From the IMG/VR virus record IMGVR_UViG_3300033182_000678, positions 1 through 64,000 of that record: a stretch of 64,000 bases of DNA; one strand, written 5' to 3'. A program made the translations under genes and the position numbers. Below the pieces are notes generated by a model. It was not told the DNA's origin, did not search any database, and worked only from the letters and a program-made list of their open reading frames with translations. Origin of the DNA: a virus. Positions 3,529 through 29,158 of the stretch are shown here, one piece after another (within the stretch, counting starts at the first letter, position 1; each line of letters opens with the position of its first letter).

Positions 3529-3538
3529 CTCTCATCTC

Positions 3539-4223: not shown

Positions 4224-4235
4224 TTATAACTCCCT

Positions 4236-4265: not shown

Positions 4266-4504
4266 GCTCTTTTTATCTTTAATTTCTCTACCTTGTCAAG
4301 AAATTCTGTTAGTGTGTACTTACCACCCTTTTCATCAAGAATAGTATAGTTCTCTAATGATTCAGGACTCGTGTTTATCATATTTATAAGTGCAACCCAT
4401 CCTTGTTCAGGATAAAAACTACCCAAACTTTCTTCACCCAATATATTACTACTGAACATTAGATTTTCTTTTGATTCTTTTTTATTGAGTATGAAATATG
4501 TCAT
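4262..4504 (-). CDS. hypothetical protein
   Basis: ORF overlapping the upstream gene. Confidence 0.6.
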   Translation of the reverse strand: MTYFILNKKESKENLMFSSNILGEESLGSFYPEQGWVALINMINTSPESLENYTILDEKGGKYTLTEFLDKVEKLKIKRA

Positions 4505-5156
4505 GTATATCCTCTGATACTATTTTATATCCTTTTGTTGATGGATGTGCTCTTCCTTTTACAAATGGATTGGTTTCATCCAATCCTTTTTCAAATAACT
4601 CTGAATCTTTTTTGTTTAATAACATATCAGTAATAGAACTATCTGTATATAAATAGTTTTCTTTTTTTACAAAATCAGGTTTTTTATAACTTTCTACCGT
4701 ATTTACAAATACATAACCTTTTACATTTGGTGTATTGTCAAGTATATGTTTTACTTTTAACACCCACATTTTATATAGTGTATTGAAATACTCATCATCA
4801 TGACAATAAATTAAATAATCTTCCCATAGTTTGTTATTCTGTGGTTCTATAAGATTAGGATGGTCGTATTTATCCACTTGAAGAATATTTCTTCCCCATG
4901 AAGATGCAAAATCTAACCATGGTAAATTTTCTCTCAAGAATGATGTTACACCCACTACACAAAAACACTCATGAACAAATGAATTTTCTTTTATAGAAGA
5001 TAACACTTCAGTATTGTTTGAACCTGCATACCCATAATTATTAACACTCCAACCCTCTTCACTTAACCAATAATCAATATTCATTTTTCTACCATTTTTA
5101 TGATGGTCTGCACAAGAACCATAGATAAAACTATCTCCAAATAAGTTAATTATCAT
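4482..5156 (-). CDS. SGNH/GDSL-like hydrolase or acyltransferase
   Basis: FGDSF, NYGYAGSNN, C-terminal HP...GY. Confidence 0.7.
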   Translation of the reverse strand: MIINLFGDSFIYGSCADHHKNGRKMNIDYWLSEEGWSVNNYGYAGSNNTEVLSSIKENSFVHECFCVVGVTSFLRENLPWLDFASSWGRNILQVDKYDHPNLIEPQNNKLWEDYLIYCHDDEYFNTLYKMWVLKVKHILDNTPNVKGYVFVNTVESYKKPDFVKKENYLYTDSSITDMLLNKKDSELFEKGLDETNPFVKGRAHPSTKGYKIVSEDIHDIFHTQ

Positions 5157-13200: not shown

Positions 13201-13861
13201 TGTTTAATCTCTTGTATAAAAACTCTGCAAAGTCAAAGTCAATCGGTGTATCAATATCAACTGATTCTAAATCATCCATTACATAAAATAGTGGATTCTT
13301 TCCTACTACATTTTTATATTTTAACATGTTTTCTTTACTGATGATTGATATTCCAAAAGTTAAGTTATAAATCTCTGGTAAATCTTGTGAGTTAGGAACA
13401 TTATCCAAATCATAATTCAATGGTTTATTATCCAACCACAAATATTCTTTAACCCTTGATACTGAATTGTAACTATCGTGTCCCAAATCTAAACAATTAT
13501 TAAATCTGTTAATAAAATCATAATAAGTTTCAACCTTTACCAATGGTGCAGTACATGGTGTGTGCATTATATAATCTGTATCTGTAGTGAATGCTAAGTT
13601 TTCCCAATGTTCTGTATTGGTACATTCATTACTTGCATAATACTCTTCTCTTTTGAAGTAACTAACACCATACTCTTTTGATATTTCAATCGCCTCATCT
13701 GAATTAGTATTAACAACTATATCATCTATAGTATCAACTTGTTTTAGTGTTTCTAATTTTAGTTTTAGTAATGTAGTGTCACCAAAAGGTCGGAAGTTTT
13801 TGTCTTTAACTCTTTGAGAACCAACTCTTATTGGAACTACTGCTGTAATTTTCTTTCTCAT
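13190..13861 (-). CDS. CMP-ulosonate synthetase (NeuA-like cytidylyltransferase)
   Basis: PIRVGSQRVKDKN, TAPL, SQDL, DIDT. Confidence 0.88.
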   Translation of the reverse strand: MRKKITAVVPIRVGSQRVKDKNFRPFGDTTLLKLKLETLKQVDTIDDIVVNTNSDEAIEISKEYGVSYFKREEYYASNECTNTEHWENLAFTTDTDYIMHTPCTAPLVKVETYYDFINRFNNCLDLGHDSYNSVSRVKEYLWLDNKPLNYDLDNVPNSQDLPEIYNLTFGISIISKENMLKYKNVVGKNPLFYVMDDLESVDIDTPIDFDFAEFLYKRLNNGH

Positions 13862-14610
13862 AGTCTATCTTTTATTTCCTTTGCTCTTGTATTGTACTCT
13901 TTAGAAAATCTTTTATAATGTGATGCCTTACTCTCTAACCATAAGGATTCCCATTCCAACATCAATGAAATTATCGTACCCAACTTATTAATATTATTTT
14001 TATTCAATCCTAAAATTACATTTCGTGTCTCAATACAATCTAAGAATCCCTTATCAAATAAGTCTTGGATGAACTCTATACTCTTAGTACCAATATTACC
14101 ACCCATATAGGTTTTCATTCCTAATTTTTTTGATTCTTGTAGGATATAAGTTACTACTCTACAAATCTCATCTGACATTACATCTTGTTTTCCATACCCA
14201 AATGACTTTGTTAAATCTGAACGACCTACCACAACACCACTTAACATTTTACTTGTAGGTGAATCTAATATATAGTCTAAGTTTTTATATGCCTGTACAC
14301 TTTCAATGTTGATAAACTTATTACCATCATAAGGTAGTTTAGTAATAGACTCTGAAAACTTTTGTAATGCAAACCTTGATTCAATCATTGGTGCAACTAT
14401 ACCATCAACTTCTAAATCAATACAACGATTTATATCAGAAATAGCTTCACACCCACCAATCTTTACACTCAAATTTAAATCCAAGTCTCTACATATTTTA
14501 GATATTTTCCAAAGGTCTGAATCCAATACTCCTTCATCTTCAAAAGATTGTTTTATACCTATGACACCTTGGTCTTTAAGTTCATCTAATAATTTTACTA
14601 TATAACTCAT
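13858..14610 (-). CDS. HpcH/HpaI aldolase/citrate lyase family protein
   Basis: KIGGCEA, IVAPMIES, NIES, GRSDL. Confidence 0.8.
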   Translation of the reverse strand: MSYIVKLLDELKDQGVIGIKQSFEDEGVLDSDLWKISKICRDLDLNLSVKIGGCEAISDINRCIDLEVDGIVAPMIESRFALQKFSESITKLPYDGNKFINIESVQAYKNLDYILDSPTSKMLSGVVVGRSDLTKSFGYGKQDVMSDEICRVVTYILQESKKLGMKTYMGGNIGTKSIEFIQDLFDKGFLDCIETRNVILGLNKNNINKLGTIISLMLEWESLWLESKASHYKRFSKEYNTRAKEIKDRL

Positions 14611-15208
14611 TTTGTTTTTCTTGTTTCTCTATTGTCTTTGGATGATATATACATAATTCTTCATGTGGTGGTAGATGTGAGTATGTTTTACAACCTGTAA
14701 TTCTTTCATGTACAGGACTTTCCCATCTTATATCATCTCTGTTTCTAAAAGCCCTACTTTGATAGTCGGGGAAATTAATCCACCCTTGTTCTGTTACTGC
14801 CCAACCCCATTTTTTAATATGGTCTTGTGTGATTCCATCTACGGTATTGATTCTTGGAACATATATTAAATCCACATCATTTATTTCTAATATTTGTTTT
14901 AATTGTGACATCAGAACTTTATGTGGTATCTCATCTGCATCTAAATGAAATATGTAGTCACCTGTTGATTTCTCTATAACTGAATTCTTTTTTCTTGCAA
15001 AGTCATTATTTAACTCTTGTTCATAAAAAACTATATCAGGATATTGTCCATGTATGTATTCATCAAACACTCTCCAACATTGATAATCAGAATAATCATC
15101 ACATATAACAATTTCATCACCCTCATCACGATGTTCTACAAGAAACTCAAGTAGTTTCTTTATCTCTTCGTGTTCATTATGAACGGTTATCCCATAAGTA
15201 ATTTTCAT
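14582..15208 (-). CDS. glycosyltransferase family 2
   Basis: ITVHNE, DDYS, LDADE, VHE. Confidence 0.88.
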   Translation of the reverse strand: MKITYGITVHNEHEEIKKLLEFLVEHRDEGDEIVICDDYSDYQCWRVFDEYIHGQYPDIVFYEQELNNDFARKKNSVIEKSTGDYIFHLDADEIPHKVLMSQLKQILEINDVDLIYVPRINTVDGITQDHIKKWGWAVTEQGWINFPDYQSRAFRNRDDIRWESPVHERITGCKTYSHLPPHEELCIYHPKTIEKQEKQNELYSKIIR

Positions 15209-15693
15209 AATTCAAAATTTTCAATATCTGTTACTTGTTGTTCTAATAATAAATCATCCATAGATTCTTTTGGTAAGTAACGATATTCATCCTCAAGATA
15301 AACTCTTCGTTTTCTACACTCTCTTAGATTATAAGTTCTGAATATGTTGTACTTTTCTATGAAGTCTTTTAGTGTCTTGTATAATTGTCTAATATCTGAT
15401 GATGACATAGTATCTTCAAAATTACCAACTTCTGTGATTCTCTTATCTTTACTTAGTCCACCAAATTGTTCAATCAATGCCTGAAACTTTGATGCAGTTA
15501 TTGGTCTTGATACGGCAGTATCTAATTGTAGTCCTACGAAAAAATATGTAAGTCTACCATTCTTTTTTCTATATGGATGTCTTTTACTCAAACACAATAC
15601 GGTTCTTCTAATTCCTTTTGTTTCATTTTTATTCTTATAAACAAAAGAAACTATTTGACCTGGTTGAACTCTTTCCCAAGATGTGTTTTTCAT
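15205..15693 (-). CDS. hypothetical protein
   Basis: ORF with ATGA overlaps on both sides. Confidence 0.6.
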   Translation of the reverse strand: MKNTSWERVQPGQIVSFVYKNKNETKGIRRTVLCLSKRHPYRKKNGRLTYFFVGLQLDTAVSRPITASKFQALIEQFGGLSKDKRITEVGNFEDTMSSSDIRQLYKTLKDFIEKYNIFRTYNLRECRKRRVYLEDEYRYLPKESMDDLLLEQQVTDIENFEL

Positions 15694-16133
15694 TCTTTAA
15701 TGATTCCCATTTCTTTACATGCATCCATAAATTCATGTTGTCCAAATGCCAATGCATTATCAACATCTAATTTTTCTGTATGTCCCTCATATTGTGGGTC
15801 TTTTAATTCTTCAGGTGTTAATTTAGTTACTTGTGCAAACTTCCACATCCAATTATTCTTAGTTCCATCTGGATAAATAATTCCAAACTTACCCATGTTT
15901 AATACTGATGGAAACCAAGTAATCTTTCTATCATAATCAAATATTGATATCTCATTCATCAATTGTGTTGATGACTCTACTGCCTTCTCAAGTTCCTCTG
16001 TACCATTCTTATAGTATGAATTACTTGTGAATCCACATTGAAAACAAATATAGGAAGTGAAATGTTCAGTAGATTCCTCAAAACATTGTTCTTTAGTGAA
16101 ACAATTTGGACAATTTGTCTTTACTTCTGCCAT
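15690..16133 (-). CDS. hypothetical protein with N-terminal Zn ribbon
   Basis: CPNC...CFQC. Confidence 0.65.
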   Translation of the reverse strand: MAEVKTNCPNCFTKEQCFEESTEHFTSYICFQCGFTSNSYYKNGTEELEKAVESSTQLMNEISIFDYDRKITWFPSVLNMGKFGIIYPDGTKNNWMWKFAQVTKLTPEELKDPQYEGHTEKLDVDNALAFGQHEFMDACKEMGIIKE

Positions 16134-17455
16134 TATATTTTCCTCAACTTCGGTAAACCTTTTTCTACTTTCTTCTCTTCTTTTTTCATATTAGGTAATT
16201 TAATATCAACTTGTTTTGGAAGTGTATCTAATTGTTGGTCAATAATCTGTTCTAACCTATCTCTCATTTTATCATGAGTGAATGTTTTTCTATTGATTAA
16301 CATTAGTTTCTTTCCTTTAACTGCATACTTAGTATAGTTTTTATATACATCTCTAAGTATTTGAGATGCAAGTCCATAATTTACACTAAACCATTCACAT
16401 GTTTCAATAAAGAATTCTTTTGGAAATGACCTTTCAGGTACCTTTACATACTGACCATTTAATTTTACGGTGTTATTCTCATCAAGAAAATCTTGTTGAC
16501 CTGTAGCGACAGGTGCAATAATTGGTTTACCACTAAATGATGCCTCTAATAAAGGTCTACCAAATCCCTCACCATGTGTGAATGATAAATGTGCCTTTAC
16601 CTTTGGATGATTATATAGTCCATTCATCTCATCATCAGTTAGGTCACCATGTAGTAACCAAATTTTTGGAAGTATTTTTGCCTTAACGTCTGATTTAATA
16701 TAATCAACTTTTTTTCTAATCTCTTCTCTATCAACAACTGAGAATCCTGCACTACTTGTTTTTAAAATAAGTCCTGGTGCATCTTTTCTGTTTTTGAATG
16801 ATTCTAAAAATACTTTAATCATCATACCAACATCTTTTCTATCTTCACCAAGACCACCTTGTAACCAATGTCCTGTATATAAGAAGTTCCAATCAGTTGT
16901 TATCTTATTAAATTCATCAACAAGTTGTTTTGAAAATTCATTTGTTTCTTTATAAATATCTGGGTCTGCACCTTCAAATAATGTAGTTAGTTGACTATTA
17001 ACTTTTAATTGACCTATGACATTACCACCTTGGTCTTTTTTGTCATATGATACATTTTTAAAATTAACTGCACTCCACTCTGATGTTATGATATTAACAT
17101 CCATACGATTTAAACCCTCAACCCATGGTGCAGGTGGTATTGTGTGTTCAATACCTGCAGTTACTCCGATGTTCTTTTTTGCAAGTGGTTGAAATTCATT
17201 CGGTACACTAATCTGAAGATGTACTTCAGGTTGTCTTTCAATATTTGGTTGTCTTAAAATTCTTTTGTGAATCTCTTTGTGTATTGGATTATGTTCTTCC
17301 AATGCATTCATTGGTGTATTACCCCATCTCATTGATTGTATTCTAACATCATATTTATCTATCTCAATCAATGCTCTACAAATATCTCTTGTGTGATTAC
17401 CATATCCACTTCTTGTGGCAACTGGTCCTGTAACTAATACTATTGGTTTACTCAT
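16133..17455 (-). CDS. glycosyltransferase family 4
   Basis: SGYG, EGFGRPLLEA. Confidence 0.88.
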   Translation of the reverse strand: MSKPIVLVTGPVATRSGYGNHTRDICRALIEIDKYDVRIQSMRWGNTPMNALEEHNPIHKEIHKRILRQPNIERQPEVHLQISVPNEFQPLAKKNIGVTAGIEHTIPPAPWVEGLNRMDVNIITSEWSAVNFKNVSYDKKDQGGNVIGQLKVNSQLTTLFEGADPDIYKETNEFSKQLVDEFNKITTDWNFLYTGHWLQGGLGEDRKDVGMMIKVFLESFKNRKDAPGLILKTSSAGFSVVDREEIRKKVDYIKSDVKAKILPKIWLLHGDLTDDEMNGLYNHPKVKAHLSFTHGEGFGRPLLEASFSGKPIIAPVATGQQDFLDENNTVKLNGQYVKVPERSFPKEFFIETCEWFSVNYGLASQILRDVYKNYTKYAVKGKKLMLINRKTFTHDKMRDRLEQIIDQQLDTLPKQVDIKLPNMKKEEKKVEKGLPKLRKI

Positions 17456-18876
17456 ACTTCATGTACCTCATAACTTTTTCTTGGTGTCCATTTTTCCCAT
17501 GCAGTTTCCATGTGGTCTTTAAATAACTGACACATATGTCTTGTACTCATCATCCCATCATCACTTGTTACAAATTCGTGTCCAAGTCTACCTGCTTCAG
17601 TTCTCTCTTCAGGTGTCTTATCATACCAATATCTTAATGCATCTGCAACATCAACCCAGTCAACTCTATCATCCATAATAAATGGTGTTGGTACTGAACC
17701 TTGAACTGAACGAGTTCTCGGCCATACTGGTTTTACCCATTCACCATGAGTTAAGTCTTTGTTGTTCTCCCACTTTCTCCAATCGTGTAGTGAGTGGATT
17801 TCTGAATAATCTTGATAAGTTAGATATTCTCCATTAAGTTTGAATCCACATTGGTCTTGTAATCCACCTGTAACATTTACAATGATTGGTGTTCCACACA
17901 TTAATGATTCACAAGTTCCTAATCCGAATCCTTCGTTGGATGCAATATTTACGGTAAGGTCAACTGCATTATATAAATGTCTCATTCCATCATTGTTTAG
18001 TTTTTCCCTTGAGAACACTATATTTAAATCAGGACATAACTCTTCAACAACTGCAGGTAAATCAGTACCATTATTATCAACTGGTTCAGTATGTAGGACA
18101 AATCCTATCTTCTGTTTTTGTTCTTCAGTTAATCCATCTGCGAATGTTTTGAATGCCATAATTAAATCTGAAGTCATTTTTCTTCTGATATTTCTATTGA
18201 TAAAGAGAATAGTAAAGTCTACTTCTTTACCTTTGAATAACTCATTTCTAACTTTGTTTACCTTAAATGTTTCATCTTCATCTACAACAGGATAAAAATA
18301 TTTTTCATTGATTCCATGTGGAACATAAGTAGAATCCCAATCTGTTCTTGGTTTTTTCTGACATACATTTTGAACTATGTTGTGTGTTTGTTTAGAAATG
18401 TTCATAATCAAATCACAACTTTCATAATAAGGTTCGTTCCACCTTGGATAAGGTAAGTTATCCCAAATATTATAATAAAAGATAGGAATCTGTTGTCTTA
18501 TCTCGTGTTCCATTTGATATAACCAAATCCAAAATCTTGGGTCTGTGTAGTGTAGGATTGCATCTGGTTTTTCAATCGCCAGTAACTCTCTCACTAACTC
18601 TTGACTTCCATAACCATCAACTGGATATATTTTTAAACTGGCATCCTCAACACCTGTATTTTCTCTCACTGCCTGATTCATATCTACGATTTTACCTGTA
18701 TCTGGATGTTTGATTGCTCCACCGACTTGAATCCAATCATATTTATCTATAGTCCCAAAGACTATTTCTCTTGACATAGTACCGACACCACTATGCATTC
18801 TTAAATCATCTGACAACAATAAGATTTTCTTCTTTTTTGGTTTTGAAGAAACCTTCTGTAGTTTTGGTAATTGCAT
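17452..18876 (-). CDS. glycosyltransferase family 4
   Basis: PHGI, NRNIRRK, EGFGLGTCESLMCGTP. Confidence 0.9.
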   Translation of the reverse strand: MQLPKLQKVSSKPKKKKILLLSDDLRMHSGVGTMSREIVFGTIDKYDWIQVGGAIKHPDTGKIVDMNQAVRENTGVEDASLKIYPVDGYGSQELVRELLAIEKPDAILHYTDPRFWIWLYQMEHEIRQQIPIFYYNIWDNLPYPRWNEPYYESCDLIMNISKQTHNIVQNVCQKKPRTDWDSTYVPHGINEKYFYPVVDEDETFKVNKVRNELFKGKEVDFTILFINRNIRRKMTSDLIMAFKTFADGLTEEQKQKIGFVLHTEPVDNNGTDLPAVVEELCPDLNIVFSREKLNNDGMRHLYNAVDLTVNIASNEGFGLGTCESLMCGTPIIVNVTGGLQDQCGFKLNGEYLTYQDYSEIHSLHDWRKWENNKDLTHGEWVKPVWPRTRSVQGSVPTPFIMDDRVDWVDVADALRYWYDKTPEERTEAGRLGHEFVTSDDGMMSTRHMCQLFKDHMETAWEKWTPRKSYEVHEV

Positions 18877-19144: not shown

Positions 19145-19549
19145 TTAATCAAAAATAATAACCTTTTTATCAATTTTTTTAGAATACTTTAGTGCAGAAC
19201 CTGTACCATTTGTCACCTTTCCATCAGTGCAAAATGCAACTACTTTATCACTATACTCAACTAAATCTTTATTTCGTTTATGGTAATTACCAACACTATA
19301 TGGTTTACCATATCTAAATGCACCATATACACAATGTATATTATGTGGTTCATGATATGGTGGAAACTCTGAATAATTTATATCAAAGTCAAGTGAGAAT
19401 TGTTTTGCATATTTATCAGCTCCCTCTCTTGCACCACCACTTACTATTTCTAAATCACTACCAACCTTTTCTTTTAATTTGAAAATAAAGTCTTTTATTT
19501 TTCGTTTGTTGGTGTAAGTTCTACTACCTATGATTGCTACTTTCATCAT
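19145..19549 (-). CDS. SLOG family (YspA/DUF2493-like) protein
   Basis: IIGSR, VSGGAREGAD, RN, GT. Confidence 0.8.
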   Translation of the reverse strand: MMKVAIIGSRTYTNKRKIKDFIFKLKEKVGSDLEIVSGGAREGADKYAKQFSLDFDINYSEFPPYHEPHNIHCVYGAFRYGKPYSVGNYHKRNKDLVEYSDKVVAFCTDGKVTNGTGSALKYSKKIDKKVIIFD

Positions 19550-19988
19550 CGTTTCTTTTTTGTTTCCTTGGTTTTTTATCTGGGTCTCTTGATACAAAGT
19601 CCCATGTCTTTTTGAAATTTTTTATACCCTCAACTATACCTGTACTTGGGTCACTGTATGTCCAACTGAATCTTGAGTATTGAATAAAGTTATTTTCATA
19701 TACATTTCTTGGTATCACATCGTACCAAATAAAAAATACTTGTTTATCAAAAAACTCTGGTCTAATAATTGTCTTCTGTGGTTTCTTAGTTTCAGTTTCT
19801 CTTTGTTTTAAAAACTGACTCAACCTACTTAAATCTATTTTCTCAGTATCTCTATCGTACCAAAAATAAATTGTGAATTGGTTTTGAACTACTTCATTTC
19901 CTACATTGGACAACTCATCTAATACTTCTTGTTCCCATGGTTTGTCAATAAAGTCTGATAACTTTAATCTTAATGTTGGTGTAATCAT
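19524..19988 (-). CDS. hypothetical protein
   Basis: ORF, TAATG-coupled to upstream gene. Confidence 0.6.
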   Translation of the reverse strand: MITPTLRLKLSDFIDKPWEQEVLDELSNVGNEVVQNQFTIYFWYDRDTEKIDLSRLSQFLKQRETETKKPQKTIIRPEFFDKQVFFIWYDVIPRNVYENNFIQYSRFSWTYSDPSTGIVEGIKNFKKTWDFVSRDPDKKPRKQKRNDDESSNHR

Positions 19989-20821
19989 TATAAATCCTTA
20001 CATAATCTACATTTTTTGTGTTTCTCACACTTTTGATAATCTTTGTCAATAATATTACCATTTTCATCATAACACTCAGACATAAATTCATCAAATCTTG
20101 TCATAACCTTATTTATACTTGGTTTTCCACTTGCAGGTGTGAATACTTGGATTCTCTTTTGTGGATATGCGATATTCTCGTATAATCTTCTCTTTAATAT
20201 TAAATATTCAACATCTATTTTATCCATTGGAATTTCTGTTTGGTCTGAGAAATATTTCTTGTATAATAATAATTGATTAGTTTTGTTCTTGTCTGCCTTT
20301 TGGTATTTATTCCAACCCATTGTAGCAGTTTTGATATCAATAATCTTCACACGACCTGTAACTTTATTATGTATAACCACATCCATGTATCCAATGAAAG
20401 TTAGTTTATTATCTAACTTCTGATTTAAGTCTAACTCAATACCAACTAATTCTGTATTCTTCTTAGGAAAGTAACTACTCTTTCTTTTTAAGAACTCATC
20501 AATGATATTAATACCATCTTGAAAAAATTCTTTCATTTCTTCTAATGAAACATCAAAGTCATCACCATGTTGTTCCTTAGATTTCTTATAGTTCTCTTCC
20601 ATTCTGTATTGTAGTATGTCATGTAGTGGTAGAGAATCTGCATATTTGATTGTCTTATTGTAGTAGGCAACTAAGTATGCCTGTATGGTTTCATGTATGG
20701 CAGAACCAAATAAGGTATAAATATTACCATAAAATGTTGTTTGTTTATCTACATAATCAAGTTTCCATGTGTATGGACATTTGTCCCACTTGGCGAACTG
20801 ACTATAACTTATTCTACTCAT
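19988..20821 (-). CDS. PD-(D/E)XK exonuclease (RecB/Cas4-like)
   Basis: SYSQ..C, GSAIH, GYMD, IIDIKT, QLLLY, terminal Cys cluster. Confidence 0.85.
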   Translation of the reverse strand: MSRISYSQFAKWDKCPYTWKLDYVDKQTTFYGNIYTLFGSAIHETIQAYLVAYYNKTIKYADSLPLHDILQYRMEENYKKSKEQHGDDFDVSLEEMKEFFQDGINIIDEFLKRKSSYFPKKNTELVGIELDLNQKLDNKLTFIGYMDVVIHNKVTGRVKIIDIKTATMGWNKYQKADKNKTNQLLLYKKYFSDQTEIPMDKIDVEYLILKRRLYENIAYPQKRIQVFTPASGKPSINKVMTRFDEFMSECYDENGNIIDKDYQKCEKHKKCRLCKDL

Positions 20822-20925
20822 CTATAATAGCTCTTCCTTTCATTTCTTCCGTTCATACTACACCTAACAATGTATAAATTCTTTCCCCGAAGTTCTTCCT
20901 GAATACGATTGATTATTTTGCCCAT
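20818..20925 (-). CDS. possible 35-aa small protein
   Basis: MGKIINRIQEELRGKNLYIVRCSMNGRNERKSYYR fills the gap with an ATGA overlap. Confidence 0.35.
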   Translation of the reverse strand: MGKIINRIQEELRGKNLYIVRCSMNGRNERKSYYR

Positions 20926-21293
20926 TTCCCTCTTTGAACTACTTGTGCCATTACACCATAATTGGAAATATCACTATAACTATCAATCAATGGTTCACCC
21001 TCTACGGCATTTTCAGTATTCCTCATCAATAGAGTTTTAATTCTCTCTACCTTGTCATTTATGCGGAAAAACAATCCCAATAATGATAATCTTATGTCTT
21101 CTTTAGTTTTGAGTATCGTTCCTACTGCGACATTGGAAGGCCCATAATCAAACTGCTTCTTACAAAATAATTCATATTGTTCTCGTTGTATTGCTTTGAA
21201 CTCACCTGTCATTTCAGGATAAGTTTCTTCCATATACTCTATGACATCCACACTCTTTTTGTTACCCTTAGGCGTATCCTTGATAACTTTCAT
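20913..21293 (-). CDS. DUF1599 / nucleotide-modification-associated domain protein
   Basis: KQFDYG, RINDK..R, DSYSDISNYG. Confidence 0.75.
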   Translation of the reverse strand: MKVIKDTPKGNKKSVDVIEYMEETYPEMTGEFKAIQREQYELFCKKQFDYGPSNVAVGTILKTKEDIRLSLLGLFFRINDKVERIKTLLMRNTENAVEGEPLIDSYSDISNYGVMAQVVQRGKWAK

Positions 21294-21318
21294 ATTATTC
21301 TCCAATTTATCGTATGTT

Positions 21319-21353: not shown

Positions 21354-21914
21354 TTATACAATTTTATCAACAATCCCATATTCTAAACATTGTTCTGAGT
21401 CAAAGTAGGAATCATTTCTTCCTGATAACTCCCAAAACCTTGCATCTTTTTTTGTAACTTCACCAAGTAACTCATTGATATCTTTTTGTAAATCTTTTAA
21501 ATGGTCAACACCTTTCATCACATCTGTAGTTTTACCCGCCTCAAATGCTGAACCCTCATGAACCATTACGGTTCCATGTTTTGTCATTGTTCTTAAACCT
21601 GTACCACATGATAATAATACTGATGCAGCACTCATACAAGTTCCAACACAATGTGTATTTACCTTTACATCTAATCCTCTAATATAATCCACTAACCCTA
21701 ACATTGCATAAACATCACCACCATATGAAGAAATGTTCAAATTGATTGGTGTATTTGGATTAACTCTTTGTAGGTAATCAAGTTTGATAATTGTTGAATA
21801 TAGTGAATCAATATCAAACTCATAGTTCATGTAGGTGGTATTGGTTTTTGAATTAACACCCCACTCCATTTCCTTAATATAAAATGATTCTTCATCTCTA
21901 AAATTGTTTCCCAT
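21354..21914 (-). CDS. clpP: ClpP-like protease
   Basis: ISSYGGDV, CMSAAS (Ser), MVHE (His), YGIVD. Confidence 0.85.
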   Translation of the reverse strand: MGNNFRDEESFYIKEMEWGVNSKTNTTYMNYEFDIDSLYSTIIKLDYLQRVNPNTPINLNISSYGGDVYAMLGLVDYIRGLDVKVNTHCVGTCMSAASVLLSCGTGLRTMTKHGTVMVHEGSAFEAGKTTDVMKGVDHLKDLQKDINELLGEVTKKDARFWELSGRNDSYFDSEQCLEYGIVDKIV

Positions 21915-22345
21915 TATTTACTCCATATTGTTTTTAGTTGTTTGTCTTCTACACCAAATTTCATTATGATTGTTTCTACTTGTTGTGGTGTTAATATTTC
22001 CAAGTACTCATCTACTTCCTTTGAACTACATTCAAAATATTCACACAAATATTCCATAACCCAAGTGTTCACTTTAGACTTATGTTTTGATTTTGTGTAT
22101 TTAAGAAATGTTCTACCCTTTGGTAATATATCAATATAAAACTGATACACATTCTTAGGAGCCAACTCCCAATACTTTTGTATCTCATTCACTACTTGAA
22201 TCCACTCTGGTTTCATTGATAGAAATCTATGCACCATATAGTTTGAGAATGTTTTTTTATCACCCTCACTTAATGTATCCCAATATGTAGGACTCTGTAC
22301 ATTTGTGATTTGTTTTACATGGTCAAATAAAGATTTAGTCTTCAT
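21914..22345 (-). CDS. clamp loader small subunit (T4 gp62-like)
   Basis: LFD..., YMVHRFLSM, LPKGRTFLKY, YFECS..E..EY. Confidence 0.7.
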   Translation of the reverse strand: MKTKSLFDHVKQITNVQSPTYWDTLSEGDKKTFSNYMVHRFLSMKPEWIQVVNEIQKYWELAPKNVYQFYIDILPKGRTFLKYTKSKHKSKVNTWVMEYLCEYFECSSKEVDEYLEILTPQQVETIIMKFGVEDKQLKTIWSK

Positions 22346-23024
22346 TTTTTACTACTTTCCAACCTGACTTTTTAATAATATTATCACTTCTACCTTTCCA
22401 ATAAAAGAACTCACCATCAAATGTAAAAATATCTTTTGTATCATAATAATCTTTATCATGATTTGATAACATAGACTCACCTCTTAAATGTAAAGTTTTA
22501 TCCAACATGATATCCCAACCACTAATAAGTCTCATTCCAAGATGTATATCATCACCATCAGTAAAGTTAGTTCCCATAACTACTGGTATACATTCTGTAG
22601 AACCATAACCATGCATTACTTTTTGTACACCCAACTCTAACATAAACTCTATATCATCTATTGATGTTTCTTCTGCACCTATCAACAAGTGTTCTATAGA
22701 ACTACAATTCGGTCTTAGTCCACTTTCTTTTAACATTCTTACCATTGTAGGTATTAATATTAATTTTGTAGGTTTTAAATTTATCATTTGTTCAAACACA
22801 TCAGTTGAAAACTTATCACTATATATAGTTCCACCAATTTGTTCCATAGGTCTTGCCATAATATATGACCCAATTGTATGTCTTGGTATAAAATCTAATA
22901 GTACATCTGATTTATTCAAGTTAAATACTTCTATATTTGAATTGATTGAATGTTGTAAAGATTCTTCACTATGTAAAACTTCTTTTGGTTTTCCTGTAGA
23001 ACCTGTTGTATTAAATTTGTTCAT
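22335..23024 (-). CDS. minimal ANL-superfamily adenylation (AMP-binding) enzyme
   Basis: TTGSTGKPK (A3), GYGSTE (A5), YDTKD (A7), GRSDNIIKKSG (A8). Confidence 0.8.
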   Translation of the reverse strand: MNKFNTTGSTGKPKEVLHSEESLQHSINSNIEVFNLNKSDVLLDFIPRHTIGSYIMARPMEQIGGTIYSDKFSTDVFEQMINLKPTKLILIPTMVRMLKESGLRPNCSSIEHLLIGAEETSIDDIEFMLELGVQKVMHGYGSTECIPVVMGTNFTDGDDIHLGMRLISGWDIMLDKTLHLRGESMLSNHDKDYYDTKDIFTFDGEFFYWKGRSDNIIKKSGWKVVKNED

Positions 23025-23463
23025 TTATAACTCTCCCTATTAATTTATTAAAATCTGACCAAAATAGATAACATGGTGCATCATCTCTGAAACCAAATCT
23101 ATTTGGATTATTTTTTTCTATAACTTTATTTTCATGTAACATTTCTGAAATTTTTATTGTTGGTGAATCAAAAGTGGTTGACCACCAAAGTGTTTTTGTA
23201 TTTGGATGTAACCTCTTTGTTAACAATAATATTTCTTTTAGTAGAACTTTAGTGAGATTTTTTTTTCTCTCTTGTTTATAAATATAAAAGTTTCTTGTGT
23301 TAATGACATTTTTTTTACACCAAATATTAACTAATCCAAGTGGTCTATCTTCAGTACTAAATTTAAAAAATCTCATCCCTTTTTCATAAAAAACTTCAGG
23401 ATTATCTTCTTGTATCTCTTTAAATTCAGTATACTTTATTTCCTCTACCAATATGCATCGCAT
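23011..23463 (-). CDS. putative GNAT acyltransferase
   Basis: FYIYKQERKKNLTKVLL resembles GNAT motif A. Confidence 0.55.
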   Translation of the reverse strand: MRCILVEEIKYTEFKEIQEDNPEVFYEKGMRFFKFSTEDRPLGLVNIWCKKNVINTRNFYIYKQERKKNLTKVLLKEILLLTKRLHPNTKTLWWSTTFDSPTIKISEMLHENKVIEKNNPNRFGFRDDAPCYLFWSDFNKLIGRVINEQI

Positions 23464-24866
23464 GTTATAACCGAATTATTACTTTCACCTGCGTGATATC
23501 TATCTTCTGTCTCTAAGTCTAATGAATAATATAAAGACTCTGAAGTTGTTAATGATATTGATGATACTGATTGTGTTGTGAACCCATTCACTACAAATGT
23601 ATCATTAACTTTGACATCTCTTATAGGTTTAAATTGATATTTTGAACCACTATAGACCATAATTTGGTCTTCAGGATTCACTCTTGTTGAATTATTTAAT
23701 TCATAATAACCCCAACTTGGTGTTACAACCAAACTATTTACTGAACTTGTTGATTCACTAAAGTCACTTATAGAACCTGTCCAATTACCTTTATCAATAA
23801 TAAATTGAGGCCAAGTCAACTTAGCTACTGATGACTGAAATGCAGTGTCTCTTTTTGGATAATTGTTAATCACTACACTCTTAACTACATCACCTGAACT
23901 AACATCACTAATTCTTTTCACCGAACCATCTGACATTGATACTGGAGTGTTACCCTCAAAATGTCCTGTTTGCCATATCCTTACATTATTAGAATCATAA
24001 ATATTAGTATTTTGTGAACCAATAGTAGTTGAACCACTTGGTTGACCAAACTTTCTGTAGTTGGTTACATAAGTTTCGTTTCTTGTAAGGTATTTGACAC
24101 TACCACTTCCAATCAATATAACACTCCTAAAAGCTCTGTACCTATCGTTATCTATTTCAGGTTCAATATATTGTTCTACATAATCAAAGTTATTGTAAAC
24201 TTGATTCCTATCTTCTGTAAAATCTGCAAAAGATACACCTACTCCCATATCTTCAGTTGGGTCTTTGATAACAACATCAGGTACATTTGTTGGATTACTA
24301 AATGATGATGAAATATCCCTACCGAATGCAGGAAAGAAATCTTCACCTAAACTACCTGTTATAAAATTACGAAAGTTAGTCTTGTTCTCACATAATACAT
24401 CAACATTATGATAATTTAAATGTCCTTGTCTTAATACATAATGTGTTGAAGATGGTGTTGGGATAATCTCATCCCATAAATTATACTCATGAGTAAATGT
24501 ACATCCTGAAGATGACAAACTTGAACTTAGGTGTTGTCTAAAAATATCTAAAGTATCTTCAACTCTTTGTGGTTCTATATTGAAGTTCAAATAGTCTTCA
24601 TAAAAAGTACATGTAGTGTGGCCAGAACTTGTAATATGACTGACTAACTCAGGAACATCAAACATTACTTTCATTCTACCACTTAACCCAACATTAGTGT
24701 TCATCTCTAATAGTTTTATTGAGCCACTTTGTGGTATCCAATCCATTGCATATAACATACCCTCATGTTCACTATCCCAATAGGCACTACCAGTAAACAG
24801 ATTTCCTATCTGTAAACTTTTTTCTTTTAATAAATTTGCGTAATTTTGTCTTTGTGAATCATTCAT
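23445..24866 (-). CDS. circularly permuted ATP-grasp ligase fused to a degenerate C-terminal Hint domain
   Basis: D...LLEMNTN near N-terminus, VIK...DMGVGVSF, EQYI; Hint-like FEGNTPVSMSDGSVKRISDVSSGDVV...YSLDLETEDRYHAG. Confidence 0.7.
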   Translation of the reverse strand: MNDSQRQNYANLLKEKSLQIGNLFTGSAYWDSEHEGMLYAMDWIPQSGSIKLLEMNTNVGLSGRMKVMFDVPELVSHITSSGHTTCTFYEDYLNFNIEPQRVEDTLDIFRQHLSSSLSSSGCTFTHEYNLWDEIIPTPSSTHYVLRQGHLNYHNVDVLCENKTNFRNFITGSLGEDFFPAFGRDISSSFSNPTNVPDVVIKDPTEDMGVGVSFADFTEDRNQVYNNFDYVEQYIEPEIDNDRYRAFRSVILIGSGSVKYLTRNETYVTNYRKFGQPSGSTTIGSQNTNIYDSNNVRIWQTGHFEGNTPVSMSDGSVKRISDVSSGDVVKSVVINNYPKRDTAFQSSVAKLTWPQFIIDKGNWTGSISDFSESTSSVNSLVVTPSWGYYELNNSTRVNPEDQIMVYSGSKYQFKPIRDVKVNDTFVVNGFTTQSVSSISLTTSESLYYSLDLETEDRYHAGESNNSVITCDAYW

Positions 24867-24881
24867 ATCTATAAATATTGA

Positions 24882-26294
24882 TTATTTAAGAAAGTTTTCA
24901 TTTCTTATCCAATCGTAACCCACATATCCCATTTTCTTATGTATATTGATTACTTTGTTACTCCAACCATCAACATATGCTAAATCATATTTTATGTTTT
25001 TTTTAATGAGATAATTAGTAATGTAAGTGAACCAGTGTTCTATTAACTTACCATGTTTCCTTGAAGTTCTATATTTAGGTAAACATACCCAATACGCACT
25101 ATAAGAATGGTCTTTAGGTAAGTCCATATCAATGTTCCAACCATGGTCATAAAAAGTAAACTCTCCCATAAACCACCAACTCCATTGTATCAATTTACCA
25201 TCATGAAACATTGCACATAAACTATGTCCATCTTGTATTCTTTTCTTTGCAGTTTCTAAATCCCATAACCAAGTTTTTCTTGTCTCTTCATTAATCCATT
25301 CCATGTTCATTCTATCCCACTCCTTGAGTCCTTGTAGAATTTCCCATGTCCATTTATCAAGTTTCTCAATAGTATCAATATCTTCATAAACAACATCACC
25401 AATATCTGGTTTTTGAATTTTATGCTGATGTATAGGTCTTATACTAAACCAATAATTCTGATGGTTATCACATAACCAACCATTAGATTCATCAATTATA
25501 CTTTTTCTAAGTTCAGTTTTAAACTTATCATCATTAGAATAATTAAAGTTAATTGAATCAAAGTCAACTTTCTTATTATATTTACTCAACACATCTACAA
25601 ATCTTTCTAATCCCCAACCAAAACATGCAGTCATTTCAGATTCATGTATGTTAAACTTATCAATAAACTTTCTACCATGTAGATTAAATGAACCTATCGC
25701 TACATGTCTATCCTCATTAGGAATCCATGCTCTAATCTCAATCTTAGAACCACTTTTGATTTGTACTTTTCTTTTTAACTCTGATTTATCTCCGAAGAAT
25801 GGGTCTGATGCCACCTCATAAAAATAATCAATACCAAAGTGTTCCAACATTTGTGATGTCAAATGCATTGCCTTGTTTAAGTTATCCTCACAATATTTCT
25901 CAGTACCAACAAACACTATCTCTGATATAGTGAAGTTAAACATTCTTTCTAAATCAGTACATTCCTCTTCTATTCGTGTACATTTACTTGTCATCACATA
26001 TGATTTATTCAATATACTTTTACCTTGTAGAAAACTATAACAATGATAACATCCTGTAGGTGAGCATATTCCTTTTTCTTCACCATGATATGAATTAATT
26101 ATAGATACTTGATTTGAGAATGATTCCATGTAACCTGTTTTATAGGCATTATCCATTGATAAATGTGATGGTGTCCATAGTCTTTCAGAATTGAATTCTT
26201 CTGACATTTTGTATGTTAGATTCTCTAAACCAACTAAACTCTTAACTATGTCACCACTTATTACTTGTAGTCCATCTCCAACTTTAGTATACAT
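24882..26294 (-). CDS. SerRS-like amino acid:[carrier protein] ligase fused to a C-terminal GNAT-like domain
   Basis: SPTGCYHCY, KCTRIE, ERMFNFTISEIVFVG, ASDPFFG, GSFNLH, TACFGWGLERF; C-terminal VCLPKYR...N...IHKKMGY. Confidence 0.8.
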   Translation of the reverse strand: MYTKVGDGLQVISGDIVKSLVGLENLTYKMSEEFNSERLWTPSHLSMDNAYKTGYMESFSNQVSIINSYHGEEKGICSPTGCYHCYSFLQGKSILNKSYVMTSKCTRIEEECTDLERMFNFTISEIVFVGTEKYCEDNLNKAMHLTSQMLEHFGIDYFYEVASDPFFGDKSELKRKVQIKSGSKIEIRAWIPNEDRHVAIGSFNLHGRKFIDKFNIHESEMTACFGWGLERFVDVLSKYNKKVDFDSINFNYSNDDKFKTELRKSIIDESNGWLCDNHQNYWFSIRPIHQHKIQKPDIGDVVYEDIDTIEKLDKWTWEILQGLKEWDRMNMEWINEETRKTWLWDLETAKKRIQDGHSLCAMFHDGKLIQWSWWFMGEFTFYDHGWNIDMDLPKDHSYSAYWVCLPKYRTSRKHGKLIEHWFTYITNYLIKKNIKYDLAYVDGWSNKVINIHKKMGYVGYDWIRNENFLK

Positions 26295-26533
26295 TACTCA
26301 CTCGGTTGAATTTGACTCATCATCTTTGATGGAATACTTCCACAATTACCACATGCAAATACTTGAATCGGAACTATTGCCTCTTTACCATTTGGACTCA
26401 TCAATGCAGATATTCTTTTCAAAAAGAACGATTGTATGAAAGATGCATTATTACATTCTTCACATAATATTGTTTCAGTATCACTAATATCTATTGGTTG
26501 TGGTGGGTCTTGGTATTTTCTATCTTTACTCAT
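26294..26533 (-). CDS. small Zn-ribbon protein
   Basis: CEEC...CGNCG. Confidence 0.7.
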   Translation of the reverse strand: MSKDRKYQDPPQPIDISDTETILCEECNNASFIQSFFLKRISALMSPNGKEAIVPIQVFACGNCGSIPSKMMSQIQPSE

Positions 26534-27453
26534 TTTACTACTCCTATTAGTTCAGTAAACATCGCCATAATATTTATCTCTTTATCCACAACCACTGCAT
26601 CACTTTGTTGATATTGAGCTAATAATAAAATACACTCCGCCACATGTCCTCTACCCCAATCATCTACGGTATCAAATAATAATCTGAATAAATCAGAGAA
26701 ATCTGTTACTTTTGAATCTGCCAATAGTTGTCTTATATTTTTAAACGAATTCTTTTTATCTTGTGTTTTTAGTATCTCTAACACTTTAACTTTGTAGTCA
26801 TTCTGAATACTCATACCCTCATCAATAACTAACTCACCATTCACCACTTGTCTCTGTGCACCATTAATTACTCTTCTTAAATCAGGAAAACCACTATTAA
26901 CTATAGTTACAATATCATTAACATCTGCCTTAACTCCCTCTTTAGTTAATATATCAGATAAGTGAACTGCAACTTGTTTTCTATCTGGTGGTATAATCTG
27001 AAATGATTGACACCTTGATTGTATTGGGTCAATGATTCTCTCAACATAATTACAAGTTAAAATAAACCTACAATGTTTTGAGAATGTTTCCATTAGATTA
27101 CGAAGTGCGGCCTGTGATGCAGGTGTAATGTAATCTGCCTCATCAAGTATTACAACTTTCATATTGGAAAACCCAATAGTAGATGCAAAGTTCTTTACTT
27201 TGTCTCTGACCATTTCAAGTTTCCTTTCATCAGATGCATTGATATATAGATAATCACATTCTATATTATTAACGAGTAGTTTTGCCAAGGTTGTTTTTCC
27301 ACCTCCTGCACGCCCATATAATAATAAATGTGGTATATCGCCTGATTCAAGATACACTTTCACTTTTGATTTTAAGTGTTCGTTTCCTATAAATTCATCT
27401 AATGTTCGTGGACGATACGATTCCACCCATAAACTATTTTTTATACTATCCAT
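26530..27453 (-). CDS. clamp loader AAA+ subunit (gp44/RFC-like)
   Basis: WVESYRP, GRAGGGKTT, NASD, DEAD, SRC. Confidence 0.95.
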   Translation of the reverse strand: MDSIKNSLWVESYRPRTLDEFIGNEHLKSKVKVYLESGDIPHLLLYGRAGGGKTTLAKLLVNNIECDYLYINASDERKLEMVRDKVKNFASTIGFSNMKVVILDEADYITPASQAALRNLMETFSKHCRFILTCNYVERIIDPIQSRCQSFQIIPPDRKQVAVHLSDILTKEGVKADVNDIVTIVNSGFPDLRRVINGAQRQVVNGELVIDEGMSIQNDYKVKVLEILKTQDKKNSFKNIRQLLADSKVTDFSDLFRLLFDTVDDWGRGHVAECILLLAQYQQSDAVVVDKEINIMAMFTELIGVVK

Positions 27454-27521: not shown

Positions 27522-27964
27522 AACTTTCTCCAAATCCAAATTGGTTCACAAAACTTTTTCCCATTTGTCGTTGGAGGTCAATTTAAAGGCCCCTATAAAT
27601 ATCTGTGACCATTGGTCGGGCTCTATTAAACTCAACCATAAATGTCCTTCTTCATGTTGATATAAATAATAAGTGTGTCCTAAGATTGGTGTAAAATTAT
27701 ATTTAGCCTCATAAACTAATTTATTCCACTCATATTCTTTCATCAACTTGATATATTCTTCTTTTATCTCATTATATCGGGTTTCAAAATAATGATTAGT
27801 TGATACCATATGTTCTTGTTTCCAAGAACTAATATTAGTCGGTTTTATCGCTGGAGCACCAACATTGCTCCCATAAGGTAAAATACCAGGATTATCAACT
27901 ACATTGTCTGATTTCTCCTTTTTTTTATTCACAACTTTTTCCAAATCCAAATTGGTTCACAAAA
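27522..27964. repeat. 32-bp direct repeat (27522-27553 and 27933-27964, 1 mismatch) flanking the DUF2452 gene
   Basis: aacttt(c/t)tccaaatccaaattggttcacaaaa read at both sites. Confidence 0.85.
27546..27950 (-). CDS. DUF2452-like protein
   Basis: LPYGSNVGAPAI, F.PILGHTYYLY, LSLIEP.QW; start may be GTG at 27932. Confidence 0.75.
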   Translation of the reverse strand: MDLEKVVNKKKEKSDNVVDNPGILPYGSNVGAPAIKPTNISSWKQEHMVSTNHYFETRYNEIKEEYIKLMKEYEWNKLVYEAKYNFTPILGHTYYLYQHEEGHLWLSLIEPDQWSQIFIGAFKLTSNDKWEKVL

Positions 27965-29158
27965 TCTTTTATCTTTAGTCTCTTCTGCCTTTTGTATTGT
28001 TGATTCTTGAAACCTCTCATCAGATGCTCGTGCCATTCCTGCACCACCACTATTTGGTCTCTTTGCCATCTCCATTCCAATACAACCTTGATATTCTGAA
28101 TCACTAAAGGTACTTATGAAATCATTCATAGGATTACAAATCTCTACCATATTTTTTTCACCTGCAGTTCGTGCAAATACATCCGCAATATTCACTAATA
28201 GATATCCACCACTCTTGATAGAAGGCCATATTTTTTTTATTGATTTCTGTAGAAAATTTTTATTCCAACTATCAATGTCTTTATACCTAACCCAACTTTG
28301 TGTATCATCATAACTATATCTCTCAACACTAAAGTAAGGTGGTGATGTGAATACGGTATCAAACATATCTTCATATTCTTTATAATCAACATCTTCGGCA
28401 GGTGATTCCAAGAACTGACAATCCTTATCAACCTCAAAGAACATATTTCTATGTGTATTATAGAAATCTTTTTGTTCCTTGTATATCGGATGGTTTTCTT
28501 TTCTTGGGTCTATTCCAAGATAAAATGCTCCTGTCTCACTTGCATAGAATCCTGCAAGTCTATCACCCCAACCCGCAGAGAAATCTAATATATTTCTACT
28601 CTGTAGTTTATCATATAATACTTTTGCAACATTTGGTTTGAATTGAGAACAAATATACTTTCTCAATCCAATCATTACACGAAATGCACTCTTATCAATC
28701 TTAGGTAACTTCAGAGAGTACGCAGACCCAATCAAGGTAGTCATAAACTTATGACTTTCCCATGTTCTCTGTGGGCCTGGTGCAATAGTTCCATCAACAC
28801 TCCACCTATTCTTTTGTTGGAAGTAATTACTTGCGTCATTACCTGTATTGTTTCTTTTGAAGTATTGTTGTTTACCTTCAAAAGTTAAATCATATCTATA
28901 CTTTGTACCCTCACGAGCAAACCATTCTCCTTCAACTAAAATTTCATTATGTCTCATACCTTTTAGTTTCTGAAGTTGTTTCAATGCGTCATTCTCGGTG
29001 ATATCCATGTATGGTGGTGGGTAAGACATCGCAACCTTTGCAAGACTTTCTCTTACATCTTGTTTATCAAAGGTTTTTTTGATGTAGTCCCACTCTTCCT
29101 CATCTATGAAGAGATAAGGTTCCATATCATAGAATTTGTCAAAGTACGATAGATACAT
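27929..29158 (-). CDS. SAM-dependent DNA amino-methyltransferase
   Basis: DFSAGWGDRL (motif I), FTSPPYF (motif IV). Confidence 0.8.
   Translation of the reverse strand: MYLSYFDKFYDMEPYLFIDEEEWDYIKKTFDKQDVRESLAKVAMSYPPPYMDITENDALKQLQKLKGMRHNEILVEGEWFAREGTKYRYDLTFEGKQQYFKRNNTGNDASNYFQQKNRWSVDGTIAPGPQRTWESHKFMTTLIGSAYSLKLPKIDKSAFRVMIGLRKYICSQFKPNVAKVLYDKLQSRNILDFSAGWGDRLAGFYASETGAFYLGIDPRKENHPIYKEQKDFYNTHRNMFFEVDKDCQFLESPAEDVDYKEYEDMFDTVFTSPPYFSVERYSYDDTQSWVRYKDIDSWNKNFLQKSIKKIWPSIKSGGYLLVNIADVFARTAGEKNMVEICNPMNDFISTFSDSEYQGCIGMEMAKRPNSGGAGMARASDERFQESTIQKAEETKDKRFCEPIWIWKKL

Follow-up and report, generated by a model that had tools for sequence, protein, structure and literature searches.

Four genes for enzymes of a biosynthetic type lie between the two clamp-loader genes of a marine virus. 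What do these genes encode, and why are they there? They are found in the IMG/VR virus record IMGVR_UViG_3300033182_000678 (79,974 bp, estimated completeness 42%), of which positions 1 to 64,000 were analysed (the window, 64,000 nucleotides, nt). The genes, called p1 to p4, lie between a gp44-like gene with its adjoining zinc-ribbon open reading frame (Zn-ribbon ORF) and the gp62-like gene. They encode an aminoacyl-tRNA synthetase (aaRS)-like ligase core with a GNAT-like domain (p1), an ATP-grasp ligase fused to a Hint domain (p2), a probable GNAT (p3) and a truncated ANL core (p4). By analogy with known enzymes, the cassette would form an amide-making pathway that is independent of non-ribosomal peptide synthetases (NRPS) and yields a small aminoacyl or peptidyl amide. 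We give this about an even chance. A compact non-ribosomal biosynthetic or modification pathway had been proposed in the original prediction, which was made from the letters of the window, and a compact non-ribosomal amide-forming pathway is the most reasonable reading.

The four genes are contiguous and mostly overlapping, as first described, and both coordinates and junctions agree (Table 1). From the Zn-ribbon ORF to the gp62-like gene, the junctions of this operon are, in order, a 1-nt overlap, a 15-nt gap and overlaps of 19, 14 and 11 nt. The gene order p409-gp44-Zn-p1-p2-p3(-p4)-gp62-ClpP-like-DUF1599 is found in six independent IMG/VR contigs, none of which has frameshifts. All six contain p3 and three contain p4. 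The genes thus co-occur elsewhere, which answers the gene-neighbourhood survey suggested with the original prediction, and the cassette is not a one-off. The ratio of nonsynonymous to synonymous substitution rates (dN/dS) is 0.15-0.39 for p1-p4 in moderately diverged pairs, and all four genes are under purifying selection. Because the gene order recurs in independent contigs and dN/dS is in this range, the cassette is not a chance arrangement. No PHROGs family was found for p1, p2 or p3.

The window is AT-rich (about 31% GC) and nearly all of its genes are on the minus strand. The gp44-like protein is only 41-45% identical to its cyanomyophage counterparts, and on this ground we assign the window to an uncultured marine T4-like phage with no close cultured relative. 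The sequencing runs that hold part of the stretch are marine DNA metagenomes only, with no RNA run listed.

The N-terminal part of p1 matches NCBIfam NF005479 (amino acid--[ACP] ligase) with an E-value of 1.2e-26. A profile of the p1 family matches the solved ligase Bll0957 (PDB 3MEY) with an E-value of 1e-26 over about 215 aligned residues, and the core also matches methanogen-type seryl-tRNA synthetase (SerRS). The family contains eight relatives of p1, with dN/dS of 0.15-0.24. In the nine-member family alignment (A2), motif 2 (R107/E109) and motif 3 (G228-L-E-R231) are invariant and both align with Bll0957. The candidate zinc ligands C82, E125 and C224 are also invariant. They stand opposite Cys, Glu and Cys of Bll0957, which we take to be the zinc ligands of that enzyme. 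The core begins about 30 residues from the N-terminus and there is no tRNA-binding domain. No phosphopantetheinyl transferase was found.

The C-terminal 225 residues of p1 have no direct match in Pfam or PDB searches, and the match of this part to PDB 2jlm is weak (E 0.65). It is connected by hhalign to c2, a family of 150-aa stand-alone GNATs encoded directly upstream of the p2 homolog in the sister islands described below (E 3.5e-5, probability 72%, and E 1.7e-4). The motif D-[DG]-W-N is common to both. Pfam Acetyltransf_1 is found in nine of 13 c2 members (best E 1e-7). Among solved structures, c2 is closest to diamine/thialysine acetyltransferases, with diamine acetyltransferase 2 at an E-value of 3e-5, and to N-terminal acetyltransferases. 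These profile matches place c2 clearly among the GNATs. For p1 as a fusion of an amino acid:carrier-protein ligase with a GNAT, the first half is strongly supported and the second half moderately so.

Residues 1-298 of p2 have no Pfam match, including to GSP_synth and GSH_synth_ATP, and the same is true of distant homologs. The whole sequence alone gives just one weak Hint match. An exhaustive profile search returned 503 proteins, including about 30 full-length homologs at 17-27% identity; close relatives are few. The AlphaFold model, built from a 35-sequence alignment, has a predicted local distance difference test (pLDDT) score of 87 and a predicted TM-score (pTM) of 0.87. The best fold match of residues 1-298 is 5oeu, of the eukaryotic glutathione-synthetase type, with a VIA Z of 12.0 over 238 residues. 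YgiC (7uka) and glutathionylspermidine synthetase (GspS, 2io7) both follow at 11.7, trypanothione synthetase at 9.9 and the E-64 ligase Cp1B at 9.6. The classical ATP-grasps LysX and RimK reach a Z of only about 5. Foldseek agrees on the fold (E 4e-6 to 7uk6).

Across the 35 p2 homologs, D42, E54 and N56 never vary, and P196 and K201 hardly do. The Mg-binding E54-x-N56 lies ahead of the ATP-binding K201, and after K201 there is an E-Q-Y-I stretch that may, by analogy with other ATP-grasp enzymes, be the adenine-binding hinge. The eukaryotic glutathione-synthetase branch is a circular permutation of the bacterial ATP-grasp fold. On the model, residues 1-298 are a permuted ATP-grasp of the glutathionylspermidine-synthetase or eukaryotic glutathione-synthetase type.

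The rest of p2 is modelled as a Hint fold, with a VIA Z of 17.0 to 2lwy (root-mean-square deviation 1.7, 133 residues), 16.9 to 6tmm and 16.0 to hedgehog 1at0. The Hint profile matches the PDB with an E-value of 8e-11, and the fold search of BFVD with the p2 model returned Hint-domain matches only. In the window protein, position 1 of the Hint is His302 and is not a nucleophile, Asn replaces the block-B His, and the domain ends in Cys-Asp in place of His-Asn, with Ala at +1. Because the position-1 nucleophile, the block-B His and the His-Asn are all missing, this Hint cannot splice. Structure prediction and Foldseek, both proposed as checks at the outset, confirm the permuted ATP-grasp-Hint fusion first described for p2, down to the position of E54-x-N56 before K201.

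The position-1 nucleophile and the block-B His are lost in the first Hint across the whole p2 family. By hand reading of the alignment, at least 19 of 35 homologs have His-Asn at the end of the first Hint. In short-form homologs, the tail after the Hint is IPKR, LPKR, LPPK, IPGK or IPKKF. In long forms (621-907 aa) it is IPPK; a second, canonical Hint with Cys at its start comes next, and often a third. The window clade retains a D-x-Y-W ending over the range of 48-89% identity. Atypical inteins are known that cleave at the C-terminus with the help of Asn, Asp or Gln, so a dead Hint is not the sole reading. The p2 Hint could possibly be a module that cleaves only at its own C-terminus.

Two further observations concern the long forms. 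Tandem arrays of two to three Hint/BIL modules are found in long genes of family c1 (L035, L053 at 1918-4182, L058, L068 and others), an unusual arrangement; the linkers between modules are very short (IPPK, K-F, K-G-S-F) and the proteins end in SP, ESDTE or EFGRK. In BFVD, the Hint part of the p2 model matches A0A218MKA3, a 1016-aa protein from an uncultured marine virus annotated as 'Putative gp62', which may be a mis-named long ATP-grasp-Hint protein of the same slot.

The third protein, p3, is probably GNAT-like. Its Pfam GNAT match has an E-value of 0.07, and that of a 163-aa homolog (34% identical) has an E-value of 0.04 over the same region; both are sub-threshold. Its language-model neighbours are viral GNAT clusters with scores of 0.95-0.96. 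No match to p3 was found in the PDB search, and hhalign comparisons with the c2 island GNAT and with the C-terminal domain of p1 were not significant. In variants without the mini-ANL described next, an unclassified 95-aa ORF lies between p2 and the divergent 163-aa homolog of p3 (L004:7426-7713, also L005, L008 and L012).

The fourth protein, p4, matches Pfam AMP-binding with an E-value of 9e-20, at profile positions 170-336 of 384 only, and it also matches NCBIfam ANL families. It starts with the A3 P-loop (TTGSTGKPKE), contains A5 (YGSTE) and A7 (YDTKD), and stops within A8 (GRSDNIIKKSG). Missing from it are the C-terminal A9/A10 domain and some 170 residues at the N-terminus. The ends of p4 are identical in relatives at 72% (L088) and 52% (P0166) identity, and its dN/dS is 0.21-0.22, so the truncation is not decay. 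By its motifs, p4 is a conserved truncated ANL core (mini-ANL) and not a full adenylation enzyme. It is accessory, being missing from three of the six window-type contigs and present in other island types. In L003, p3 and p4 are read in one frame, which prompted the idea that p3 is the missing N-terminal ANL subdomain. This was rejected as the main reading. Homologs of p3 lack p4 in L004-L006, p4 is present without p3 in L088, searches of L124, L129 and L146 gave no p3 match, and the AMP-binding profile stops short of p3.

These assignments modify the original prediction in several parts. The ligase half of the p1 fusion was recovered directly, and the GNAT half was reached through c2. For p3 as a GNAT, the language-model neighbours agree and the Pfam matches fall short. 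An ANL core is present in p4, as first named, but not a complete adenylation enzyme. Of the three ATP-dependent carboxylate-activating folds that had been counted, those of p1 and p2 are borne out. The third activity is uncertain because the adenylation lysine belongs to the C-terminal domain, which p4 lacks.

The slot between the clamp-loader genes is variable in related phages. A search seeded with a distant p2 homolog returned 104 viral loci. In all 46 newly fetched loci with both flanks, the p2 homolog lies between the Zn-ribbon ORF and gp62; counting 11 window-type loci fetched earlier, this analysis comprised 57 loci. A separate, unbiased sample, seeded with gp62, comprised 41 related marine viral loci with both flanks. 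An island containing an ATP-grasp-Hint gene is present in 36 of these, and five have an empty site, where nothing intervenes and the Zn-ribbon ORF and gp62 overlap directly. The early description of the cassette as inserted between clamp-loader subunits is literally true. The window-type cassette was found in five of the 41 loci.

The other islands are 3.3-8.2 kb long and typically consist of GNAT (c2), ATP-grasp-Hint and two to five paralogous prolyl 4-hydroxylase (P4H)-like 2-oxoglutarate (2OG)-Fe(II) oxygenases. Variable additions include an S-adenosylmethionine (SAM) methyltransferase, sulfotransferases, a dehydrogenase of the medium-chain dehydrogenase/reductase (MDR) type, a B12-radical SAM enzyme and unknown families. 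The same mini-ANL occurs in four loci of other island types. The unknown families c3, c6, c17 and c18 of the sister islands show no relation to the p1 core, and the idea that one of them supplies an aaRS-like gene was rejected. The window cassette is therefore a rare, lineage-specific variant of a mobile, hypervariable, biosynthesis-like enzyme island. The invariant part of this island is the ATP-grasp-Hint gene, usually with an adjoining GNAT. In the window, the island GNAT appears to have become fused to an aaRS-derived activating domain. The DUF1599 and methylase-like neighbours belong to the backbone and stay in place at occupied and empty sites.

In deposited phage genomes, no full-length homolog of p2 or of the P0036 type was found, and there was only one weak match to p1. 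Neither fusion, nor the mini-ANL, nor the island arrangement has a counterpart in the deposited phage genomes or the literature searched. The early statement that no phage system of this composition has been described agrees with these searches. In the pelagimyophage report, the hypervariable regions described sit elsewhere in the genome than the clamp-loader slot (PMC7029224).

The steps that we infer for the cassette are as follows. The p1 core would make an aminoacyl-adenylate, like its relatives, the amino acid:carrier-protein ligases. As p1 lacks a tRNA-binding domain and the search for a carrier protein found none, the aminoacyl group would then go to an amine bound in the GNAT-like domain of p1 itself. 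The ATP-grasp of p2 would activate a carboxylate as an acyl-phosphate and then join it to an amine. This carboxylate is probably C-terminal, from a short peptide or an amino acid; among the fold relatives of p2, this chemistry is carried out on the C-terminal carboxylate of short peptides, and with polyamines or amino acids. Together, p3 and p4 would extend or cap the product with further acyl groups, and the whole would possibly be built on a short peptide or on a di- or polyamine. The latter kind of acceptor is no more than a lead, suggested by the relatives of the GNAT and the ATP-grasp. A small amide product is favoured because the closest known logic is the NRPS-independent assembly of amides by an ATP-grasp and an ANL enzyme.

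Several points weigh against a small amide product. No product, substrate or acceptor is readable from the sequence. The match of p1 to NF005479 scores 93.5 bits, far short of the curated equivalog cut-off of 357; p1 is thus related to the amino acid:[ACP] ligases without being an equivalog of them. No carrier protein (PF00550, E <= 1) was found in the 79,974-bp record, which is about 42% complete. The GNAT assignments for the C-terminal part of p1 and for p3 are indirect or weak, and the GNAT and ATP-grasp fold matches leave the substrate class unfixed. Canonical ANL enzymes need the A10 lysine of the C-terminal domain for adenylation, and the adenylating ability of p4 is uncertain; without this lysine it may activate nothing alone. 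A plain small-molecule pathway leaves the constant fusion to Hint unexplained.

The substrate could be a self-encoded peptide, because the Hint retains a cleavage-competent terminal residue and a conserved tail of 3-5 residues. Here p2 would be both enzyme and precursor, and its C-terminal tail would be built upon or tailored by the island enzymes. The ATP-grasp would activate the free C-terminal carboxylate of the tail, neighbouring enzymes would decorate the tail, and the Hint, capable of C-terminal cleavage only, would free the product by cyclisation of its terminal Asn, Asp or Gln. We consider this unlikely. The terminal His-Asn of so many first Hints, and the Asp of the window clade, have been kept though the N-terminal machinery is lost, and the residues that follow are short and conserved both in the Pro/Lys tails (IPKR, LPKR, LPPK, IPKKF, IPPK) and in the x-Y-W of the window clade. 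The long forms place a tetrapeptide between the Asn of the first Hint and Cys1 of the second, as BIL-Ubl-BIL proteins do, and the BIL domain of such a protein (6tmm) is, with 2lwy, the best structural match. ATP-grasp fold relatives act on the C-terminal carboxylates of short peptides, and genes for P4H-like oxygenases are found next to the Pro/Lys tails and not next to the aromatic tail. This match between tails and gene content comes, however, from very few independent lineages, and the tails could be merely structural. Cleavage by the Hint is a proposal from sequence, and the Cys-Asp of the window clade would at best be a weak site for it. Confidence is low for the last residues in the p2 model (pLDDT 47). 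The missing splicing residues of the Hint, the truncation of p4 at both ends and the ATP-grasp-Hint remnant in L162 and L163 could also point to decaying cargo, that is, to degenerate enzyme remnants in a recombination hot spot. Low dN/dS, invariant catalytic motifs, the ends of p4 conserved down to 52% identity and the intact reading frames of the six contigs make this very improbable.

The enzymes may instead act on something larger or more general than a dedicated small product. They could aminoacylate a protein C-terminus or conjugate it with polyamines, in host or phage, or they could rewire the polyamine or thiol pools of the host during infection. Relatives of the ATP-grasp modify polyamines and the C-termini of proteins or peptides, and the island GNAT is similar to diamine acetyltransferases. 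Virion proteins of jumbo phages contain Hint-like domains, and a bona fide GspS gene is present in Aeromonas phage 44RR2.8t (PMC1524935). No target is identifiable, however, and hypervariability and tailoring enzymes are more in keeping with a small product that varies than with a fixed housekeeping target, so we hold such a role to be rather improbable. Hypermodification of DNA or nucleotides, in which an amino acid or acyl group would be ligated to a modified base as in phage thymidines known to bear amino acids or polyamines, is distinctly improbable. The island does lie within the replication module, with DUF1599 and methylase-like genes nearby and glycosyltransferases downstream. Yet the DUF1599 and methylase-like neighbours are kept at full and empty sites alike and are thus unlinked to the island. 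Pfam and NCBIfam searches found no DNA-binding, base-flipping, kinase or pyrophosphorylase domain in p1-p4, and the oxygenases of the sister islands are P4H-like and not of the TET/JBP type. The original prediction had allowed DNA or a glycan as the target, and nothing found points specifically to either.

To our knowledge, biosynthetic-type gene clusters have rarely been described in phages. A swappable enzyme island amid the replication genes of abundant marine T4-like phages suggests a product used in an arms race during infection. Knowledge of the product would reveal small molecules or peptide modifications used by ocean phages, and the island is a possible source of compact amide-forming enzymes. 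The folds are known; in the genomes and literature searched, no counterpart was met for the combination of a GspS-type ATP-grasp with a non-splicing Hint, the aaRS-derived ligase with a GNAT, the conserved mini-ANL and the swappable island. If p2 carries its own peptide substrate, the logic would resemble that of ribosomally synthesized and post-translationally modified peptides (RiPPs), diversified by swapping tailoring genes in a fixed slot. This would be a new way to make short modified peptides, and the finding would then be categorically new.

Table 1. Coordinates of the cassette genes, their domains and the bordering clamp-loader genes in the window.
Feature	Position	Strand	Basis
gp44-like clamp-loader large subunit, left backbone of the island	26530-27453	minus	phrog_168 E 2.5e-83; Pfam AAA, DNA_pol3_delta2, Gp44_lid
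Zn-ribbon ORF, 79 aa, conserved backbone, left island border	26294-26533	minus	adjoins gp44 in 54 related loci
p1, class II aaRS-like amino-acid ligase core + GNAT-like domain, 470 aa	24882-26294	minus	
p1 catalytic core, residues ~30-247	25554-26207	minus	class II aaRS motifs 2, 3
p1 GNAT-like region, residues ~337-454	24933-25286	minus	hhalign to c2 family
p2, ATP-grasp + Hint fusion, 473 aa	23445-24866	minus	
p2 ATP-grasp ligase domain, residues 1-298	23973-24866	minus	AlphaFold model + conserved motifs
p2 Hint/BIL domain, residues 299-470 (fold match 299-473)	23457-23972	minus	VIA Z 17.0
p2 tail, Ala-Tyr-Trp after terminal Asp of Hint	23448-23456	minus	D-x-Y-W conserved
p3, probably GNAT fold, 150 aa	23011-23463	minus	
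p4, mini-ANL, 229 aa	22335-23024	minus	Pfam AMP-binding, NCBIfam ANL families
gp62-like clamp-loader small subunit, right island border	21914-22345	minus	phrog_225 E 4e-20; Pfam Phage_clamp_A E 1e-4

Plus-strand ORFs within the cassette (for example 24042-24305) were treated as antisense noise. On the gp62 side of the island, the space between gp62 and the DUF1599 gene is occupied by a ClpP-like protease gene (21354-21914; Pfam CLP_protease E 4.5e-28). Only some related loci have this gene, and those with an empty site lack it. The DUF1599 gene, also annotated as 'nucleotide modification associated domain 1', is at 20913-21305. Farther downstream are a PD-(D/E)XK nuclease (19988-20821) and a YspA/SLOG-like protein (19145-19597). 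At 13858-18876, downstream of the replication genes, there are glycosyltransferases (GT1 twice, GT2) and an HpcH/HpaI aldolase-like gene. On the gp44 side, a 409-aa protein (27929-29158) has weak DNA-methylase/methyltransferase matches (phrog_12517 E 1.7e-13); its gene is directly upstream of gp44 in most related loci, regardless of island content.

In several related loci, including those with an empty site, gp44 and the Zn-ribbon ORF stand about 1.1-1.25 kb apart, and farther in some (L003:3091-4346, L145:2740-3873, L147:8591-9724, L019:~3600-4764), whereas the two genes overlap in the window. This spacer may be an insertion of the homing-endonuclease type. Two loci, L162 (9432-9944) and L163, have islands of 1.9-2.6 kb with an ATP-grasp-Hint remnant of about 170 aa, and these islands look like they are decaying.

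The cassette can be compared with several known systems. Aeromonas phage 44RR2.8t encodes a GspS homolog, ORF093c (Pfam E 8e-109), in a T4-like phage (PMC1524935). This canonical GspS gene is the only phage precedent that we met. Unlike p2, ORF093c has a clear Pfam match and no Hint fusion, and it is not reported in the clamp-loader slot.

The amino acid:[carrier-protein] ligases (Bll0957 of Bradyrhizobium, 3MEY) are truncated homologs of methanogen-type SerRS. The p1 core is like them in motifs 2 and 3, in the Cys/Glu/Cys set and in having no tRNA-binding domain. Unlike p1, the solved ligases carry no GNAT-like domain. Amino-acid activation is combined with a GNAT-fold transferase, or with build-up on the C-terminus of a carrier peptide and later release, in the mycobacterial LysRS-MprF protein 'LysX' and in PEARL/pearlin systems. 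These systems use aminoacyl-tRNA, whereas p1 has no tRNA-binding domain.

The permuted ATP-grasp fold of p2 is shared with GspS, YgiC/YjfC, eukaryotic (homo)glutathione synthetases and Cp1B (Z 9.6-12.0 over ~230-245 residues). By analogy with the GspS and glutathione-synthetase relatives, the expected chemistry would be formation of an acyl-phosphate from a carboxylate, followed by attack of an amine. The p2 domain, at about 300 residues, is much smaller than these relatives, is fused to a Hint and has no Pfam match. The Hint has the same fold as the BIL/Hint domains of Tetrahymena BIL-Ubl-BIL (6TMM) and of pretoxin-HINT (Z 17), and many p2 homologs have a BIL-like layout of His-Asn, a short peptide and a second Hint that starts with Cys. 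Unlike BIL domains and inteins, the Hint of the window has no N-terminal nucleophile or block-B His and ends in Cys-Asp.

The closest pathway logic is that of E-64, dapdiamide and cystargolide, which are amides made without NRPS by an ATP-grasp and an ANL amide-bond synthetase, with or without a 2OG oxygenase (PMC12568646). The nearest folds of Cp1B, the E-64 ligase, are homoglutathione synthetase and the YgiC/YjfC peptide-spermidine ligases, and in the E-64 pathway a 2OG oxygenase makes the warhead (PMC12568646). In E-64 cp1, dapdiamide DdaF/DdaG and cystargolide CysC/CysD, a stand-alone ATP-grasp is found beside an ANL enzyme, as here. The 2OG oxygenases of this logic occur in the sister islands and not in the window cassette. 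The E-64-type clusters are cellular and have a full-length ANL enzyme, whereas the island is carried by a phage and combines an optional mini-ANL with an added aaRS-like ligase-GNAT and a Hint-fused ATP-grasp.

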